From Cystobasidiomycetes sp. EMM_F5 (lineage: Eukaryota), in the NCBI GenBank assembly GCA_051047955.1, contig JBPGPT010000003.1:434001-498000 (forward strand): a stretch of DNA of 64,000 nt, given 5' to 3'. This document shows, one piece after another, positions 23,280-31,404 of this stretch. Every line of letters starts with the position of its first letter. Position 1 is the first letter of the stretch. The notes below the pieces were generated by a model that saw only the letters and a list, made by a program, of their open reading frames with translations, was not told the DNA's origin and made no database searches. The translations under genes and the position numbers were made by a program.

Positions 23280-23702
23280 TCTCTATCAGCAGATATACAG
23301 GCCGTCAGCGCTGATGACACGCAAAGAATGCGGCGAAGACGTCAGACGACAAAAGTGCGGCCAGTAGCATCTTTGCGGGGTCTCCATCCAAGTATCGAAC
23401 ACTCAAGACGAGGTCAACGCAATCTCCTGAAAGAAGACAGCACGTTGAAGGGTTATTTGCGATGCGGCAAGAGAATGGACACTGAGTCTTCACAGAGTCT
23501 GTAGCAGCGCTGTCTTGTCGTTGTACTTGTTTGCTTCTGTCACAAAGTCGGCCCATGGCCTGATCGGCAATTTCGGATCCTCGTACGAGGCGACCATCCA
23601 AGTCGAGCGACGGCTGACTTCGACGAGCAGGCTGCAATGTCGCCAACGGGCATGAGAGCCAACTAAACTCGAGTACAACAGCACATACTCGCACCCTCAG
23701 CC

Positions 23703-26700
23703 ATGGACGCCGACTTTGACTTTCTCAGCTACCTCGACCTCGGCCAAGATGGATTCAGTCAAGGCAGTGGCGGCAACAGCCATAATTACATGGACTTTGC
23801 ACCGGGGACAGCTTCTGATGATGGCAGGAGTTTGCATGGGAGTACGGGAATGATGAGCTTCCCGGCTGCCGCCTCAGTCGCTTCCTCGTATGGCTCGCCG
23901 CAGCTGTTTCAGCAACAGGACGCAATGTCGTACCATAACGTCAATGGCGGATATAATGGACAGCCAGCTCTTGCTCGGTTAGCCAACAAGATGCCTACCA
24001 TTGCAGTCAACGATGCAGATTATAATACTGCACTATCCCATCGTCGCGTTTCCTCGTATTCCGACTATATTCCACCGTCCATAACATCAGGAAGTCTGCA
24101 AGGCTCGCTGTCGCCTGCGTCGGCTCCTTCCCCGCCTTTCGATACTTCGGTCTTCGCAAGACAGCAGCAGCAGCTGCACACACAGCCGTACTTTCAGCAG
24201 AATCAACAGCTTCACAGCCAACAATGGCCTGCACCGCATACATCGCAACAGCAGCAGTTACCATACGGCAATCAGAAAGATGCCAACGTGCAGTCTTTCG
24301 GAACGGACAGCATCACAAATGTCAACGGTGCCACTCCGTCTGCTCAGTTGCAGCAACTGCTTCTCGCCAATGCCCAATTACAGCTACAACTGCAGCTTCA
24401 GCAGCAATATGCCCAGCAGTTGCGCCCAAGCGATCTCTCCAGTAGTCACGCTGGAGTCAACATGTTGCACGGCCTGCAAAGTCCCCCTTCTGCTGCGGAA
24501 TCTTCTTTTGGTAGCAGTACCGCTTCCAGTCACGCCAGTAATGCTGCATCTCCAGTACACAGCGACATATCATCGTCAGCTTCGCATGACTTATACAAGT
24601 ACTCGACCAGTATGCAAGACTTGCCAATCCATCAGGTGGCCTCGCAGCCCAGCGCAGTACCAGCTGCAAGCTGTAAGGACAAAAATCTATGCGACATGAG
24701 CTTGTCTGATCATTATGATTATCCAGCAATGATACAGCAAAGTATGTCGGCTGCAGCGTCGAATATGCTCGCAGACACAATGGCGTCAGTCGCAGACGTC
24801 GTGACCGGGCCAGCGGTACCGCCCAAAAAAGCGACCTTGAAACGTTCGTATCAAGTGGTCAAGGAGGAGGAGGAGGAAGAGCCAAGTATACGAAGCAAAG
24901 TGCAAGCATCTTCGACAAAAGCGCTTGTACCTATTGCAGCAGCTCCCGGAATTTCTTCCACCTTAACTCCCGTCGAAGAGGCTGTATCGAACACCGCATC
25001 GCTCAAAGTGCCAGGCGGGCACAATGCCGTCGAACAAAAGTATCGTCGAGGTATCAATGATTCTCTCATTATGTTACGAGAGATTGTACCCGCTTTGCAC
25101 CATTTACGAGCGCCACCTGGTGTTATCGCTAGTAAGCGCAAGATTTCACAATTCGCCCTTGCAGCATCTGCTACGCCAGCAGCTCCTTCCACTCTTGTAG
25201 ATGGTGTCATACCGCCAAAGAAGCTGTCAAAGCAGCTCATTCTCGTGGCAGCTACCGACTACATCCGCTTTCTGGCATCTCGGAGAGCTGAACTTGAGGC
25301 CGAAGTTTCCATGCTCCGCGAGACTTTGTCAGAATGCGTCGAGGACGCTAATGTAGTCTTTGGCATATTCGAGAAGCGGTGGACCGATAAGCGACGCGCT
25401 TTCGAGGAAGACAGAGAAGCTATCTATGCCGATCGTAAGATACGGAAGAAGGGTTCATCAGGAGATAGCTTGTCCGAATCATTCGATAGTCGCAAGCGCG
25501 CAAAGCTCGAGGATGGCTCCACAAACAAGTTGGAATCTCCGGATGACAGCAACGCCGAGGACGATGACGAGGATGACGACGACGATGAAGATATGCAAGA
25601 TGACATCCCCGTCGTCGCCACTTCCAGTGCTTTGCCGCAGAAAGGTAAAGCCAGAGCCAGAGCTGGGAAATCAGCACAACCAGGCGCCGCCTCCAAAGGC
25701 AGGCAGAAATCTGGACCAACAGCCGCTGCTGGCTCAATGACAAGTAAAGGCAGGACGGGGCCGCCAAAGGCCTTGATGAGTGTCTTTGCTGGAGTTTCAT
25801 TCGCAGGTGGAGCCGGCTATGACATGCTGTACGGCGCGTCCGGAGAGTCTGCTCGTGCGCAAGGGGTCTCAACTGCCGAAGCTCCACGTGTTTGGTCGCA
25901 GGGGCTGGTCAAACGTAGCGCAGCACTTCTTGCAACGGACGTCACACAACAAGTCAACCAGACTGCAGCGCTACACCCGCTTCAAACATTCTTCCTCGAA
26001 AGACCTGCGCTTCTTAGCGGACTCGTAATGCTGGCAATGTCATGCATTATCAGCTATATAGTCTTCTACCTCGTTCCAGCCACATATAAGACCCTCACTC
26101 GCGACAACTCGGCCCGCAAGAGACGCGAAGCCAGATCTGTTTTGTTGGCAGCGAGCAAGAAACCCGAAGCCTCCTCCTTACAGCAACAACGCAAAGCTCT
26201 TGATTATCTGGCTGGCGGTCCGGCCACAAAGATCATGGCTCTGATCAGCTTACCCAGTCTGATACTGTCGTTCGCTTTCAGCAGTATAGTTGGCTGTGCT
26301 GGACTTTCTAGTCAAAGTGTTGAAGTCGACTCCGCCGAAACGGAAAGAGCTGCGTCTGCTACTCGTAGCTTGGAATTATGCTTCGCTGGAGCATCGCAAG
26401 GAGGAAGCTTCGCTGCGATGACCTCTTTCTTCCGTCTGTATAACCTCAGGCATTCTTCGCATTGGCCAAACTCCCCCGACCTTACCATCAAAGCCGACAC
26501 TATAATGGCCATTGCAGCCATTCACTGCTTCGGCAAGTATGGCTCTGCCCTCGCGCGGAGATTATGGCAGCGAGCTGGATTTATCGCAAAGAAAGATGCT
26601 TCCCAAATCCAACCGTGGGTCGCCATGTCGGTACAATCGGATCTGGCTGCGGTGATTGGTGCGTTTGAAGCAAGTCCTTCCCCTTCGCCACTCTTTGCGG

Positions 26701-27368
26701 CAGCAGAAGAGCAATGTAAGGCTCTATTGGTTGGGGCTTGGACCGCTCTCTTCAAGCACGTCATGACTACGACAATCGTCAAGTGCGAGTCGTCAGAAGA
26801 CGCCGACCCCACTACCCCTACTCTCATGTCGGCCTCCCCGTTGCGAGGACCGCAGCTCGACTACGCCGACAAGGCCGAGCAGGTTTTGCAGACCATGCCA
26901 CCCACATCGCCGCTTTGGGCTTTGGCTGTCCTCGTCAAGGGAGTCGAGGCTATTGGGCGGAACGACGTTACTGCAGCCACAAGATACGCAATAGCCTTGG
27001 CTTCGCACGGCAGCAGGCTAACAAGCGTCAAGCAGTATCTAGCGCTCGTCAACGGTAGCTCAATGCACCTCGATGATGGCGAGTCAGCCAGTGACCTTGA
27101 TATTCTGGCCTCCGTTACTGTATCCTGGCTGGCGGTTCGTCAGGAAGCATCAACAACGCAAGACAATGCATCTGGCAGCTTGGTATCGATTGATGATAGA
27201 TTACAGGCCAACACGCTTCAAATTCGCAAATTGCTTGCTGCACAAGCTTTCAGTACATCAGACGAAGACTTTATGGACGCGCAAGAGCGCTGTGTGGAGC
27301 GACTAGTAAGCATCGGCCGAAAAGCCGCTGGCTTGGAGTCGTTAAGCGATAGTGGGTGCGAGATGTAA
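23703..27368 (+). CDS. SRE1: SREBP-type bHLH-ZIP membrane-bound transcription factor (Sre1-like), single 1221-aa ORF
   Basis: HNAVEQKYRRGIND has the SREBP-diagnostic Tyr. Helix 2 LSKQLILVAATDYIRFL with zipper, two hydrophobic segments, long C-terminal domain and Q-rich N-terminus. Confidence 0.85.
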   Translation: MDADFDFLSYLDLGQDGFSQGSGGNSHNYMDFAPGTASDDGRSLHGSTGMMSFPAAASVASSYGSPQLFQQQDAMSYHNVNGGYNGQPALARLANKMPTIAVNDADYNTALSHRRVSSYSDYIPPSITSGSLQGSLSPASAPSPPFDTSVFARQQQQLHTQPYFQQNQQLHSQQWPAPHTSQQQQLPYGNQKDANVQSFGTDSITNVNGATPSAQLQQLLLANAQLQLQLQLQQQYAQQLRPSDLSSSHAGVNMLHGLQSPPSAAESSFGSSTASSHASNAASPVHSDISSSASHDLYKYSTSMQDLPIHQVASQPSAVPAASCKDKNLCDMSLSDHYDYPAMIQQSMSAAASNMLADTMASVADVVTGPAVPPKKATLKRSYQVVKEEEEEEPSIRSKVQASSTKALVPIAAAPGISSTLTPVEEAVSNTASLKVPGGHNAVEQKYRRGINDSLIMLREIVPALHHLRAPPGVIASKRKISQFALAASATPAAPSTLVDGVIPPKKLSKQLILVAATDYIRFLASRRAELEAEVSMLRETLSECVEDANVVFGIFEKRWTDKRRAFEEDREAIYADRKIRKKGSSGDSLSESFDSRKRAKLEDGSTNKLESPDDSNAEDDDEDDDDDEDMQDDIPVVATSSALPQKGKARARAGKSAQPGAASKGRQKSGPTAAAGSMTSKGRTGPPKALMSVFAGVSFAGGAGYDMLYGASGESARAQGVSTAEAPRVWSQGLVKRSAALLATDVTQQVNQTAALHPLQTFFLERPALLSGLVMLAMSCIISYIVFYLVPATYKTLTRDNSARKRREARSVLLAASKKPEASSLQQQRKALDYLAGGPATKIMALISLPSLILSFAFSSIVGCAGLSSQSVEVDSAETERAASATRSLELCFAGASQGGSFAAMTSFFRLYNLRHSSHWPNSPDLTIKADTIMAIAAIHCFGKYGSALARRLWQRAGFIAKKDASQIQPWVAMSVQSDLAAVIGAFEASPSPSPLFAAAEEQCKALLVGAWTALFKHVMTTTIVKCESSEDADPTTPTLMSASPLRGPQLDYADKAEQVLQTMPPTSPLWALAVLVKGVEAIGRNDVTAATRYAIALASHGSRLTSVKQYLALVNGSSMHLDDGESASDLDILASVTVSWLAVRQEASTTQDNASGSLVSIDDRLQANTLQIRKLLAAQAFSTSDEDFMDAQERCVERLVSIGRKAAGLESLSDSGCEM

Positions 27369-27600
27369 TATACGCATGCTTCCAAGGTAGTCTCGATCGA
27401 ATTTCAACTGTAGCAGTAGTTATTACCTCATCAGACGTTTACAATGCCACAATCCCCGCCGGCATGCGGGATTTCTGACGCTTTGCATCTATGATATTCA
27501 GGCTGCCGCACTGCAGTTCGCCAAATTTGCTACCCTTATCCAAGAAAGCATGCAGCTTTTGATGGCCTCAGAAATGCATGATGCTGTTCACATGCAGCTA

Positions 27601-28577
27601 TTATTCACGAATTCTGATGGCAAGGCTCCTGGTGTTCGATGTATTCGGGCTCGTCAGACGCATGCGCACATGTTGCATACACATTACGTACAATGGTTTG
27701 TTGTTGGCTGCAAGATGTCCGTAGACCGGAGTGTACCCACGGTGAAGCCATTTACCAGCAATGAGCTCCAGCTCTTTGTCGTTACGATGGCATGCAATAT
27801 TGCGATAGGCGAGTGTCTCGCGCGGGTAGTGGCATGTCAGTCCGTCGTAGACGAGTTCGTTCATGACAACAGTCGAATGAAACCTTTGGATGGCCTGAGC
27901 AGGCTAAGTATTAGGTTCGTAATGTCAGTGAAATCCAGCGGGCCATGTATACAGTGTCTTACTGCGCATGAAACTGCAATCAATTCGATGCGGCTGTCTG
28001 GAACCCGGCGCAGTGCCAATTTGGTGACGGAACATATTCCTGTGTCACCAGTCACATCGTAGTAGCTTGCATCATCATCCTCATCGCGTTGCGCGACCTC
28101 CTTTTTCTTCAGAACCTTGTAATCGCCAGTCTGCTTGAGGATACGCACAACCCGCTTCAGCTTGTCCTCAGGCACATAGATGTCTAGGTCTCGCAGCGTA
28201 TGCTTGGTCCAGTTGTCGCACTCCAGCATGGCTACGATGGCCGATCCCGAGACGACACAGCCCAGTGCGCATAGGTCTCGCATCCTCTGACTGCAAGCAT
28301 GACATGTCAGCTGAAGCAGGATTCATTGAAAACAGGTGCAGGCGCACGCAGGGTTTGAAAGGAACTTGCGGAGAATGGCGGTGACTCTGCTCGAGATGAG
28401 GACATCAGCCTCCTTTCGCCACTTGGTGTCTACGCAGCGGAGCTGCAGTATCTGCAGGTTTATTGCATTCAGCCTCTGTAGCACGTTCCGCTGATATCGC
28501 TGACTGACAGATGTAGTGTCTAGTCGTAATAGAATGCCACGAGCGATGTTGGAGCATGCGATGAGATCCTGGAACAT
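27601..28577 (-). CDS. Putative nucleotidyltransferase-fold protein, tandem paralog A (5 exons)
   Basis: Spliced product MFQDLIACSNIARGILLRLDTTS|ILQLRCVDTKWR...GCVVSGSAIVAML..DLDIYVP...RIELIA..|..FHSTVVMN...KWLHRGY. Confidence 0.75.
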
Positions 28578-29025
28578 CTTGCTTGTTGACTCAAAAGGAC
28601 GATGAAAGGCAGAGAGTAGAACCACACTTCACGGTTCGTGTCCAGTTCCGTGCGTTCCGTTCCGTGCAACGGTTCCGTGTAGCCTTGCATCCATCTTCTC
28701 GGAAATCGTTGACGGTCAAGGCTCGAGCACGAGCTGTATGCAGTTAGGGCGGTGCTTGCGCAAGGAAAGGAAAGGTACATCCTTGCAGGTTCATCAGGTG
28801 GGAGTCTCGTGGATTTGTAGATCATTACTGACCAAAGCGGGGCAAAACGGGCGGGGCAAACGCGAATAAACGTATTATTCACATAATGAGAAATAAATAT
28901 TCAAAGATCGGCACCTTGACATACAGCTGCAGAGCATTATGAAATGCCACTGGCAGTATCTACGTAACAGCAGAGACGATGAATTATTTCAGAAACACAG
29001 AACAGTGGCGTTTCAAGATAGCGTA

Positions 29026-30052
29026 TTAGTGATGAACTAAATGCGTGTGTATCGAAATCGGTAGCCGCCTATTTGAATACGAGGATCAGTCTGATTAGCA
29101 GGCAGCGGTGAGATAAGACAGAAAACATACAAAGCCGAATATGCTGATATACGTCTGCGCTGCTCAAGCAAGTGGTACGGGATATCAGGCATTGCACGGT
29201 AGCCTCGCTGTATCCATTTGCCAGCAATAAGTTCTCTTCCCTTTGGATCGGTTTTATTGGCCACGTTGCGGTATGACAGGGTGAGACGGGGAAAGCGACA
29301 CGTAATTGAGTCATGGACGAGCTCGTTCATGACCACAGTCGAATGGAAGCAGCTGATAGCTTCGGTTGGCTGACGGTGGCCAATAGCCTTCAGCTATAGC
29401 ACTGTAGACGTTTGTTGGCGTTGCCTCACCGGTGTTATGGTTGCTATCAGCTCGATACGATACTTCGGGTTGCGGCGTAAGAAGAGCCGGGTGACGCTCC
29501 TAATGTCCGTAACCACGGTGCCGCTGTAGCAGTCGTAAATGTAATCGTTGTATCGGCTCATGGAGTATTTTCCATGTTGTCGGCAATCCTTCTCCATCAT
29601 GACGGTGTAATCACCGGTGCGCAACAGGATGCCGACGACATGCGTGAGCGCATCTTCAGGAACGTAAATATCGAGATCACTGGTCGTTGTCCTCGTCCAA
29701 TCATCAGCTTCCAATATGGCTACCACTGATGATCCAGATACGATGCATCCCCAATCACTGATCGTTCTCATAGTCTGCCTGTAGAGCCATGAGCCTGTTT
29801 GCTGGAAAATAAAGCTTGCAGACGCACGACGGATCCGAGAGAAACTGTCCCAGGACGGATGTGGCTCTACTCGATACGAGAGTGTTGACTTGGTTCCTCC
29901 ACTCAGTGTTTACATTTCGGATCTGCATCAGCTGTGGATGCCGACTCAGAACACGGCTAATTGCGAGATTTCCGCGCACGAACAGATGCAGCGTCAAGCC
30001 GTAGTAGTATAGAGCGCGCAATAGGAGGAATGGCGACCAGATTTTGTAGCAT
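29026..30052 (-). CDS. Putative nucleotidyltransferase-fold protein, tandem paralog B (5 exons)
   Basis: Spliced product MLQNLVAIPPIARSILLRLDAAS|LMQIRNVNTEWR...GCIVSGSSVVAIL..DLDIYVP...RIELIA..|..FHSTVVMN...KWIQRGY. Confidence 0.75.
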
Positions 30053-30239
30053 GTCGAGCCAGGATGTCAGTACTGTAGTCAAGTTGATACGTAGTCAAGT
30101 TGGCGTTAGACGGATCGGAGGAAAGGCTCGTGCGATAAGGTGCAGAATGTCACAATGTAACAATGTTACAATACCGGTTGTCACTGCGTCCCAGACTGTA
30201 TAGCTTCCCGCAGCTGCTTGCCTTTGGCCGAAGCAAAGC

Positions 30240-31404
30240 ATGGCGGCTGCACCAGACCGGCGACGGTTTACTGGACCAGAGACAAGCTGGCCCATCAGAT
30301 ACGTGCGCCCTGCTGCCGATAAACCGTCAGATGTCAACGCAGAAGATAGAGCAGATGGTCGGAATTTGGATCAAATGAGACCGATTTGTGCGTTGGCGGG
30401 GAATGAGAAGAGCGCATGTTCAAGGTTGCTGAGGACACACTGCCTGCTTGCTCAGACCTCAAGACTGGCTTGGTTCCGCGAGCCAACGGGTCCGCATATA
30501 TCGAAACTGGCAAGACCAAGATCATTTGCGCAGTGTACGACCGCGCAAATCAATCGTCAACACACTTTACTGAGATCTCGTTTAACACTGTAGCTACGGC
30601 CCCCAACCTGCTCGCAAAGATGCTCCATATTCCGCCAAAGCGAAACTGAATGTCGAAGTCAAGTTCACGCCCTTCGCCAGCTTGCATAGGCGGAGAGCGC
30701 CTGGGCGGGTATGCCATCATTGCAATGTTCCCGCTGAACATGTCACTGACATCTGGACGTAGGACACGGAATCTAATGGTCTCGCGGCGCAGGTTACTCA
30801 AGCCCTGCTGCCGTCATTACGGCTGGACTTATTGCCAAAATCTGCAATCGATCTATACATCACTATCCTGGAGAATGATGGCCCCCTTGACAACATCTCC
30901 GCGTGCGCTTGATCTCCACCTGTCTCTGACCATTCCTCATGACACATGTATCAACAGGGGAATTACAGCGGCGAGTGTGGCCTTAGCGGAAGCTGGGGTA
31001 CAGATGTATGGTATTGTGGTCGGCTGCAGTGGAGTAGGGCCGTTTTAATAGGCCTTCTCCGGCTACAATGCTGATATGTTCGTACCCAGAATCTGGTGAT
31101 CAGAGGTGACAAGCAACAACTTCTGATCGACGCGACTCATGAAGAATCTTTACGTTCTCATGGTCTGGTCAGCGTAGCATGTATGCCCGCGCTTTCCAGC
31201 ACGACAACCTTGTCTATCAGTGGGAAGCTCTCAGCACAAATGGCAAAGGAGGTGAGGACTATCACTCTGTGATTCAACAGAAGCTATCGCTAAGGCGAAT
31301 ACGGACAGACTCTGAAACAGCTGCAGAATGAAGCTGTAAAAGTGCACTCTGTGGCGGCGCGTGCGCTGCTTGAGGGCAAGAAGGTACCGGTCACGATTGC
31401 GTAG
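30240..31404 (+). CDS. MTR3: Exosome RNase PH-domain subunit Mtr3/EXOSC6-like
   Basis: DRRRFTGP, RADGR, LKTGLVPRANGSAYIE..KIICAVYGP, LLPKSAIDLYITILEND and GITAASVALAEAGVQMY. Confidence 0.82.

Follow-up and report, generated by a model that had tools for sequence, protein, structure and literature searches.

What do the two adjacent genes in the middle of this piece of a Cystobasidiomycetes genome encode, and is the enzyme that their conserved motifs suggest really there? The genes, here called A and B, lie on the minus strand between positions 27601 and 30052 of a 64,000-nucleotide stretch of Cystobasidiomycetes sp. EMM_F5 (contig JBPGPT010000003.1, positions 434,001 to 498,000), and this whole stretch is referred to as the window. 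The explanation that we favour, tentatively and at slightly less than even confidence, is that A and B are an old tandem pair, kept by selection and restricted to its lineage, with a very divergent Pol-beta-type nucleotidyltransferase-like core that is nearest to the family NTP_transf_5 (PF14907) and probably transfers a nucleoside monophosphate (NMP).

Gene structure of the pair

Gene models were made from the minus strand of positions 27200-30500 and a six-frame list of open reading frames (ORFs), with the pieces joined at GT..AG sites. The resulting models are as follows.

29026..30052, minus: gene A, 267 amino acids (aa), spliced from exon-sized ORFs at GT..AG sites
30052-29984, 29931-29828, 29778-29430, 29369-29131, 29068-29026, minus: exons of gene A
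Introns 1-4 of gene A: 52, 49, 60 and 62 nt, phases 0, 2, 0, 2
27601..28577, minus: gene B, 246 aa, spliced from exon-sized ORFs at GT..AG sites
28577-28509, 28451-28348, 28290-27963, 27903-27692, 27628-27601, minus: exons of gene B
Introns 1-4 of gene B: 57, 57, 59 and 63 nt, phases 0, 2, 0, 2

Position 27601 is the final base of the stop codon of B, and position 30052 is the first base of the ATG of A. Neither spliced frame is interrupted between its conserved M(L/F)Q(N/D)L start and the stop codon, and the introns of A and B fall in identical alignment columns with identical phases. The first-pass annotation, made from the sequence alone, had described two adjacent minus-strand genes with four introns at equivalent positions and phases, and the spliced models bear this out. 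The acceptor of intron 1 of gene A (CACAG) was picked by homology to B alone; it places LMQ opposite the ILQ of B, and the alignment is free of gaps there. An alternative acceptor 9 nt downstream, giving a 61-nt intron, was rejected, as it leaves A three residues short relative to B.

Part of gene B is present in the NCBI collection as the hypothetical protein EMMF5_001061 of Cystobasidiomycetes sp. EMM_F5 (P0004 hereafter), which has 168 aa, is identical to residues 79-246 of B and was modelled ab initio with the same introns 3 and 4 as found here. The EMM_F5 annotation was made with funannotate, with no RNA data mentioned (PMC12697161), and P0004 therefore counts as an independent model without being evidence of transcription. 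Its first residue is an internal Met of B, so that residues 1-78, with the G-S motif described below, are missing from it. No annotated protein for gene A was found in the protein collections searched, where gene A was represented only by the ORF fragment P0001. The truncated public model of B and the unannotated gene A look like annotation gaps.

Paralogy and selection

In a BLASTP comparison, A and B were 53% identical over 231 columns (E 1.8e-82). Identity at codon positions 1, 2 and 3 was 57%, 74% and 33% over 246 aligned codons, and the proportion of nonsynonymous differences (pN) was 0.33, compared to a saturated synonymous value (pS) of 0.85 (243 codons, using the A model with the 61-nt intron 1). 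Purifying selection after duplication, as had been suggested from the conserved motifs, is thus borne out by pN against saturated pS and by the codon-position identities. The introns are barely alike or not alike: for intron pairs 1-4, the observed alignment score was reached by 18, 2, 279 and 14 of 300 shuffles, respectively. Similarly, the 300 nt upstream of the two genes are unlike each other, and the downstream flanks score about 2 standard deviations (sd) above shuffles. Because of the codon signature, the saturated pS and the small likeness of introns and flanks, the duplication is taken to be old and the protein sequence to have been kept. There is no third copy within the 64-kb window, the next tblastn matches having E values of at least 1.1. 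As judged from their sequences, A and B are real, expressed-type fungal genes and old tandem duplicates under purifying selection.

Similarity to NTP_transf_5 (PF14907)

The sole nucleotide-enzyme family found in a Pfam scan was NTP_transf_5 (PF14907), below threshold. It matched exon 3 of A (11.8 bits, E 0.18), exon 3 of B (16.4 bits, E 0.0068) and P0004 (15.1 bits, E 0.017), all three at profile positions 94-120/132, over the DLD strand. The family is entered in Pfam as 'Uncharacterised nucleotidyltransferase' and is mainly bacterial; the one paper found to name PF14907 calls it, in the passage concerned, 'an uncharacterized nucleotidyltransferase' (PMC8942020), and a literature search by the name NTP_transf_5 found nothing.

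The similarity was quantitatively evaluated with our own PF14907 alignment and hidden Markov model (HMM), built from 21 domains of Bacteroidota genomes, and by local hhalign comparison with the profile of spliced A and B. The HMM pairs emsDiDlLVrekdlkraeqvllelG.Y of the family with tlrDLDIYVPEDKLKRVVRILKQTGdY. The hhalign scores, with their controls, are given below.

A+B profile against PF14907: 32.2 (P 4e-4)
A+B core only against PF14907: 32.0 (P 1.2e-4, probability 55%)
A alone and B alone against PF14907: 27.4 and 28.9
157 column shuffles: mean 14.3, sd 2.5, maximum 21.6; 0 reach 32
Reversed query: 13.6
24 real ORFs of the window (9,038 residues): maximum 18.1
A+B against the unrelated RNase H and LMWPc: 17.5 and 14.5
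PF01909 against PF14907, true clan relatives: 29.9
PF01743 against PF14907, true clan relatives: 29.8
PF01909 against PF01743, true clan relatives: 22.8

Since the pairs of accepted clan members score 22.8-29.9, the match between A+B and PF14907 is as strong as those between such members. Inclusion of the N-terminus in the matched domain was considered and rejected, as it adds 0.2 to the score and, taken alone, gives 11.4 at a non-collinear place.

The two groups are alike in having a DxD strand followed by a helix that ends in G-Y (sDiDlLV...L...G-Y in PF14907, sDLDIYVPED...L..TGDY in A and B), a candidate glycine turn about 18-19 residues upstream of the DxD, a predicted h-E-L-h strand downstream and a length of about 250 residues. 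They differ in that A and B are fungal and intron-containing, have S-G-S in place of K-G and a different N-terminus, and are detectably alike to the family over only 28 residues. The MNT-type NTP_transf_2 enzymes (PF01909) also resemble A and B, in that hhalign places G-S on G-S and DLD on DID/DVD and that the core is small and consists of a single domain; however, the distance from G-S to DxD is longer in A and B (17 intervening residues), there is no HEPN-type partner gene, and the score of 17.5 is at the level of the controls.

Conserved motifs and the predicted fold

All five of the motifs on which the first-pass annotation relied, GC(I/V)VSGS, DLDIYVPED, RIELIA, FHSTVVMNELV and ELIAGKWxxRGY, are present in both spliced proteins, at the following places.

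29730..29750, minus: gene A, GCIVSGS, candidate G-S motif, its G 19 residues before the first D of DLD
28242..28262, minus: gene B, GCVVSGS
29652..29678, minus: gene A, DLDIYVPED, candidate DxD metal-binding strand
28164..28190, minus: gene B, DLDIYVPED
29442..29459, minus: gene A, RIELIA, predicted strand, its invariant E a candidate third carboxylate
27975..27992, minus: gene B, RIELIA
29316..29348, minus: gene A, FHSTVVMNELV, invariant block in exon 4, no family match
27850..27882, minus: gene B, FHSTVVMNELV
29199..29234, minus: gene A, ELIAGKWIQRGY, invariant ELIAGKWxxRGY block
27733..27768, minus: gene B, ELIAGKWLHRGY, invariant ELIAGKWxxRGY block

The DLDIYV of both proteins was aligned to the DiDlLV of PF14907 by the Pfam HMM, our own HMM and hhalign, and it has the [DE]-h-[DE]-h pattern. 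In the full alignment by hhalign, the SGS glycine coincides, with low confidence (this region alone scores 9.6), with the G of the K-G motif of PF14907, and the two lie almost equally far from the DxD; RIELIA with its invariant E lies on VELHw. The core-only alignment pairs PPTEAISCFHST with the pEd..L..H block of the family.

Two low-confidence AlphaFold runs agreed on a helix over SSVVAILEA, then a strand at LDI, another helix and strands further on, RIELIA among them; a short strand before the G-S turn was present in the first run (exon 3) only. The order of secondary-structure elements fits an alpha-beta-alpha-beta-alpha-beta arrangement in these models, which are unreliable.

In a language-model comparison, the neighbours of exon 3 and of P0004 were unnamed Basidiomycota clusters (0.94-0.96), and one neighbouring Basidiomycota cluster carries the automatic name 'Nucleotidyltransferase family protein' (0.92-0.94). 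Next came giant-virus Gad2 and poly(A)-polymerase-catalytic clusters at 0.81-0.88, scores under 0.9 being leads only by the tool's calibration. Phage Gad2, for which a nucleotidyltransferase domain is predicted (10.1101/2023.05.01.538930), and giant-virus Poly_A_pol_cat (PF19244) are thus the nearest Pfam-named language-model clusters, and both are of nucleotidyltransferase type; no sequence relative of A and B was found in viral contigs or phage records.

We consider a nucleotidyltransferase fold likely for A and B, clearly above an even chance. The earlier claim of a complete Pol-beta active site stands in part: the region from GS to DxD resembles PF14907 (32, compared to a shuffle maximum of 21.6), the third carboxylate is a candidate, and the fold and catalytic activity are putative. 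The suggestion that FHSTVVMN corresponds to the DFTxN motif of class II enzymes was not upheld. Compared with PolyA_pol (PF01743, represented by 24 Bacteroidota head domains), the A+B profile scored 13.6 (core 13.4) in hhalign, which is below the unrelated controls at 14.5-17.5, and there was no Pfam match to PolyA_pol for the pieces of A and B or for P0004.

The N-terminal region

29828..30052, minus: gene A, N-terminal ~57 residues, IPPIARSILLRLDAASLMQIRNVNTEWRNQV (exons 1-2 and intron 1), F-box-like by pattern only
28348..28577, minus: gene B, N-terminal ~57 residues, IARGILLRLDTTSILQLRCVDTKWRKEA (exons 1-2 and intron 1), F-box-like by pattern only

The F-box consensus consists of a hydrophobic spacing together with V-x3-W. 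The N-terminal spacing in A and B is I/L-x3-L-x4-L-x2-I/L-x2-V-x3-W, with I-P in A. This fits the consensus, and, as in F-box proteins (PF00646 / PF12937), it is found at the extreme N-terminus; B departs from the consensus in being without L-P. Pfam gave no F-box match at E <= 10 for exon 1, exon 2 or the 76-aa read-through of the in-frame intron 1 of B, and a PDB search of the N-terminal pieces gave no match. Such searches do the domain less than justice, since intron 1 divides it and each piece is one half of it. No F-box gene was found within the window, and 0 of 401 Bacteroidota genomes gave one over the cut-off. Of the F-box-like N-terminus proposed from the sequence, therefore, the resemblance in spacing stands at the level of pattern, and a Pfam or PDB match was not obtained with the pieces split by intron 1.

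Search for relatives

When 1,835,955,588 representatives were searched exhaustively by HMMER with the profile of exon 3, three matches reached E <= 0.001, none of them a true relative. Two of them are the window's own ORF fragments (P0001 and P0002), and the third is a 1674-aa low-complexity repeat protein that was judged spurious, having matched 8 times over profile positions 5-36 only. Word-seeded searches gave 169 candidates with none at E <= 0.001 and 1962 candidates with none at E <= 10, and in a word-seeded search for near relatives only P0001, P0002 and P0004 passed, out of 42 candidates. Searching the PDB by sequence produced insignificant matches only, tblastn against phages gave no match, and PHROGs gave nothing meaningful.

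Pattern searches of assembled contigs were likewise empty of relatives. In viral contigs, neither a set of 39 pattern matches nor one of 45 contained a relative. Metagenome contigs gave 67 pattern matches that reduced to 2 loci with 22-24-residue matches, both dismissed as chance (a bacterial 299-aa ORF, and a low-complexity frame opposite a 966-aa ORF). Genome contigs gave 37 pattern matches at 7 loci. The two of these seven that were read, L004 (NrpR) and L005 (a glycoside hydrolase), are unrelated proteins sharing the octapeptide DLDIYVPE, and the remaining 5 (3 further Methanolobus, 2 further Bacteroidales) have the same match places as L004 and L005. The Methanolobus NrpR regulatory domain (L004, 1075-2049) has both DLDIYVPE and an FLRR as in gene A, at a spacing of 66 residues compared to 65. 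The likeness was judged to be coincidence because the locus had been selected through the octapeptide, a reason that does not extend to the second match (FLRR).

In the sequence collections searched, A and B are without detectable relatives beyond their own fragments and P0004. None of 27 Cystobasidiomycetes genomes is from a sister taxon of the EMM_F5 yeast (PMC12697161), and such sparse sampling of the lineage partly explains the isolation of the pair.

Genomic context and public contigs

The first-pass annotation had also raised a viral or phage origin, a viral or phage type of tail in KWxxRGY, and a role in defence. None of these gained support: the viral-contig and phage searches described above found no relatives, the ELIAGKW pattern has no counterpart in viral contigs or phages, and PADLOC was nearly empty, with housekeeping genes as neighbours. 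In PADLOC, three of the four pieces had no match, and exon 3 of B had two weak, unrelated ones (REase_II, E 0.018; BrxL, E 0.033). The neighbouring housekeeping genes encode a formin, SRP19, Mis12, a RhoGAP, a basic helix-loop-helix (bHLH) protein, a protein kinase, Exo70, adenylate kinase and KRE6, and the guanine-plus-cytosine content of the pair is like that of its surroundings.

Two further frames lie close to gene B. An uninterrupted ORF of 1233 codons (23667-27368, plus strand) is convergent with it, with 232 bases between their ends; one HLH domain (E 1.5e-8) was found in it, along with long low-complexity stretches, both Q-rich and acidic, and by eye the 1233-aa bHLH protein looks like an SREBP-type regulator. 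A stop-free frame of 223 codons, antisense to exons 3-5 of B (27391-28062, plus strand), has no family match and most likely just results from the coding sequence on the other strand.

Three public runs (X1, X2 and X3) yielded 4 short contigs (151-252 nt) with pieces of A and B, and these include intron sequence and are therefore DNA-like. Three of them (28325-28531, 29793-29943 and 29981-30131), from runs X1 and X3 of two studies, are 151-207 nt long with 0-1 differences, so other sequenced samples contain, at low depth, this yeast or one almost identical to it. The contig from run X2 (252 nt, depth 2.1) has 4 mismatches to gene A over 249 aligned bases and joins 29752 to 29843. The 90 bases skipped (29753-29842) comprise intron 2 with 15 and 26 coding bases, are without GT..AG ends, and their loss would shift the frame of gene A. 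Because it retains intron 1 sequence, this contig looks like DNA of a close relative with a deletion, although it is a single contig and an error is possible.

Discussion

A model that would account for these observations is the following. In each protein, a core of about 130 residues would keep the G-S turn, the DxD strand and the downstream invariant glutamate of RIELIA, and we infer that this core binds Mg-bound nucleoside triphosphate and transfers NMP to an acceptor, possible ones being the side chain of a protein, a small molecule and the 3' end of an RNA. It would be preceded by a helical, F-box-like N-terminus of about 45 residues, which, if real, may tether the protein to Skp1 and the Skp1-Cullin-F-box (SCF) ligase, and followed by a predicted helical tail of about 90 residues carrying the FHSTVVMNELV and ELIAGKWxxRGY blocks.

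The alternative that survives best, although we think it unlikely, is that A and B have some other fold and that the likeness of DLDIYV-helix-GDY to NTP_transf_5 is convergent or due to chance; the pair would then be lineage-restricted orphans, for example a small adaptor or regulatory protein. A number of results weigh on this side and against a nucleotidyltransferase. The Pfam scores of 11.8-16.4 bits are far under the PF14907 gathering cut-off of 31.2, and by Pfam's own criterion A and B are not members of that family. In hhalign, a single segment of 28 residues, TTSDLDIYVPEDALTHVVGILLRTGDY (P 4.7e-6), which consists of the DLD strand, the following helix and G-Y (TGDY), accounts for 31.0 of the 32 units; multiplied by 24,736 Pfam families this P value rises to about 0.1, which leaves the match borderline once multiple testing is allowed for. 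The flanks alone miss the collinear places (before, 9.6; after, 10.7-15.4; N-terminus, 11.4), and the other nucleotidyltransferase families do no better than the controls (PF01909, 17.5; PF01743, 13.6). The octapeptide DLDIYVPE occurs by chance in the unrelated NrpR, glycoside hydrolase and bacterial 299-aa ORF, and no relative was found among the 1.84 billion representatives. AlphaFold gave no usable model, with a predicted local distance difference test value of 48.1 for exon 3 and 34.7 for the exon 3-intron 3-exon 4 read-through of A; Foldseek of the exon 3 model against pdb gave 0 matches at E <= 0.001; and the language-model recognition value of P0004, 2238, is under the tool's mark of 2300. 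The core-only alignment, moreover, places VELHw opposite VVTDIRS of A and TGICS of B, the latter without an acid, which makes the third carboxylate ambiguous. Against another fold, however, the score is at least 10 units above the 157 shuffles, the reversed query, the 24 control ORFs and the two unrelated families, the G-S turn is found at PF14907's distance upstream, and the named language-model neighbours are all of nucleotidyltransferase type.

Less probable again is that the proteins are nucleotidyltransferase-like but non-catalytic, that is, F-box receptors or adaptors using a degenerate fold to bind a nucleotide or a nucleotidylated target. The C-terminal part of an F-box protein is normally a binding domain and not an enzyme, which, together with the F-box-like spacing of the N-terminus and a third carboxylate that is uncertain and under one alignment missing in B, would suit such a role. 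However, the G-S, the D-x-D and the E of RIELIA are invariant despite saturated synonymous sites, as is expected for an active site that is kept, and the F-box itself was unconfirmed in the Pfam and PDB tests. A non-functional pair, of decaying duplicates or mis-joined ORF fragments, would fit the missing annotation of gene A in the collections searched and the frame-shifting gap across intron 2 of A in the low-depth run X2 contig, but it is very improbable, as both spliced frames are open, 8 of 8 introns are GT..AG with matching phases, and identities of 74% and 33% at codon positions 2 and 3 cannot persist without selection on the protein.

The preferred reading, a divergent NTP_transf_5-like enzyme, has a bolder extension, to which we give only a slim chance: A and B may be the first recognisable members of a group of fungal F-box-tethered minimal nucleotidyltransferases, associated with SCF and nucleotidylating a substrate or making a nucleotide signal, instead of only offering the substrate up for ubiquitylation. 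The unnamed Basidiomycota clusters found by the language model (0.94-0.96) would then be their remote relatives. No description of a combination of F-box and nucleotidyltransferase in fungi or Basidiomycota was found in the literature searched.

Should the nucleotidyltransferase reading fail, the locus would be an ordinary taxonomically restricted gene duplicate with a small annotation fix. If it is true, A and B would represent a strongly diverged, eukaryote-specific offshoot of an uncharacterised and mainly bacterial family, possibly joined to a ubiquitin-ligase adaptor. They would provide a handle on PF14907, a family without known function, and an example of how fast such enzymes may drift beyond sequence recognisability in a lineage without sequenced sisters.

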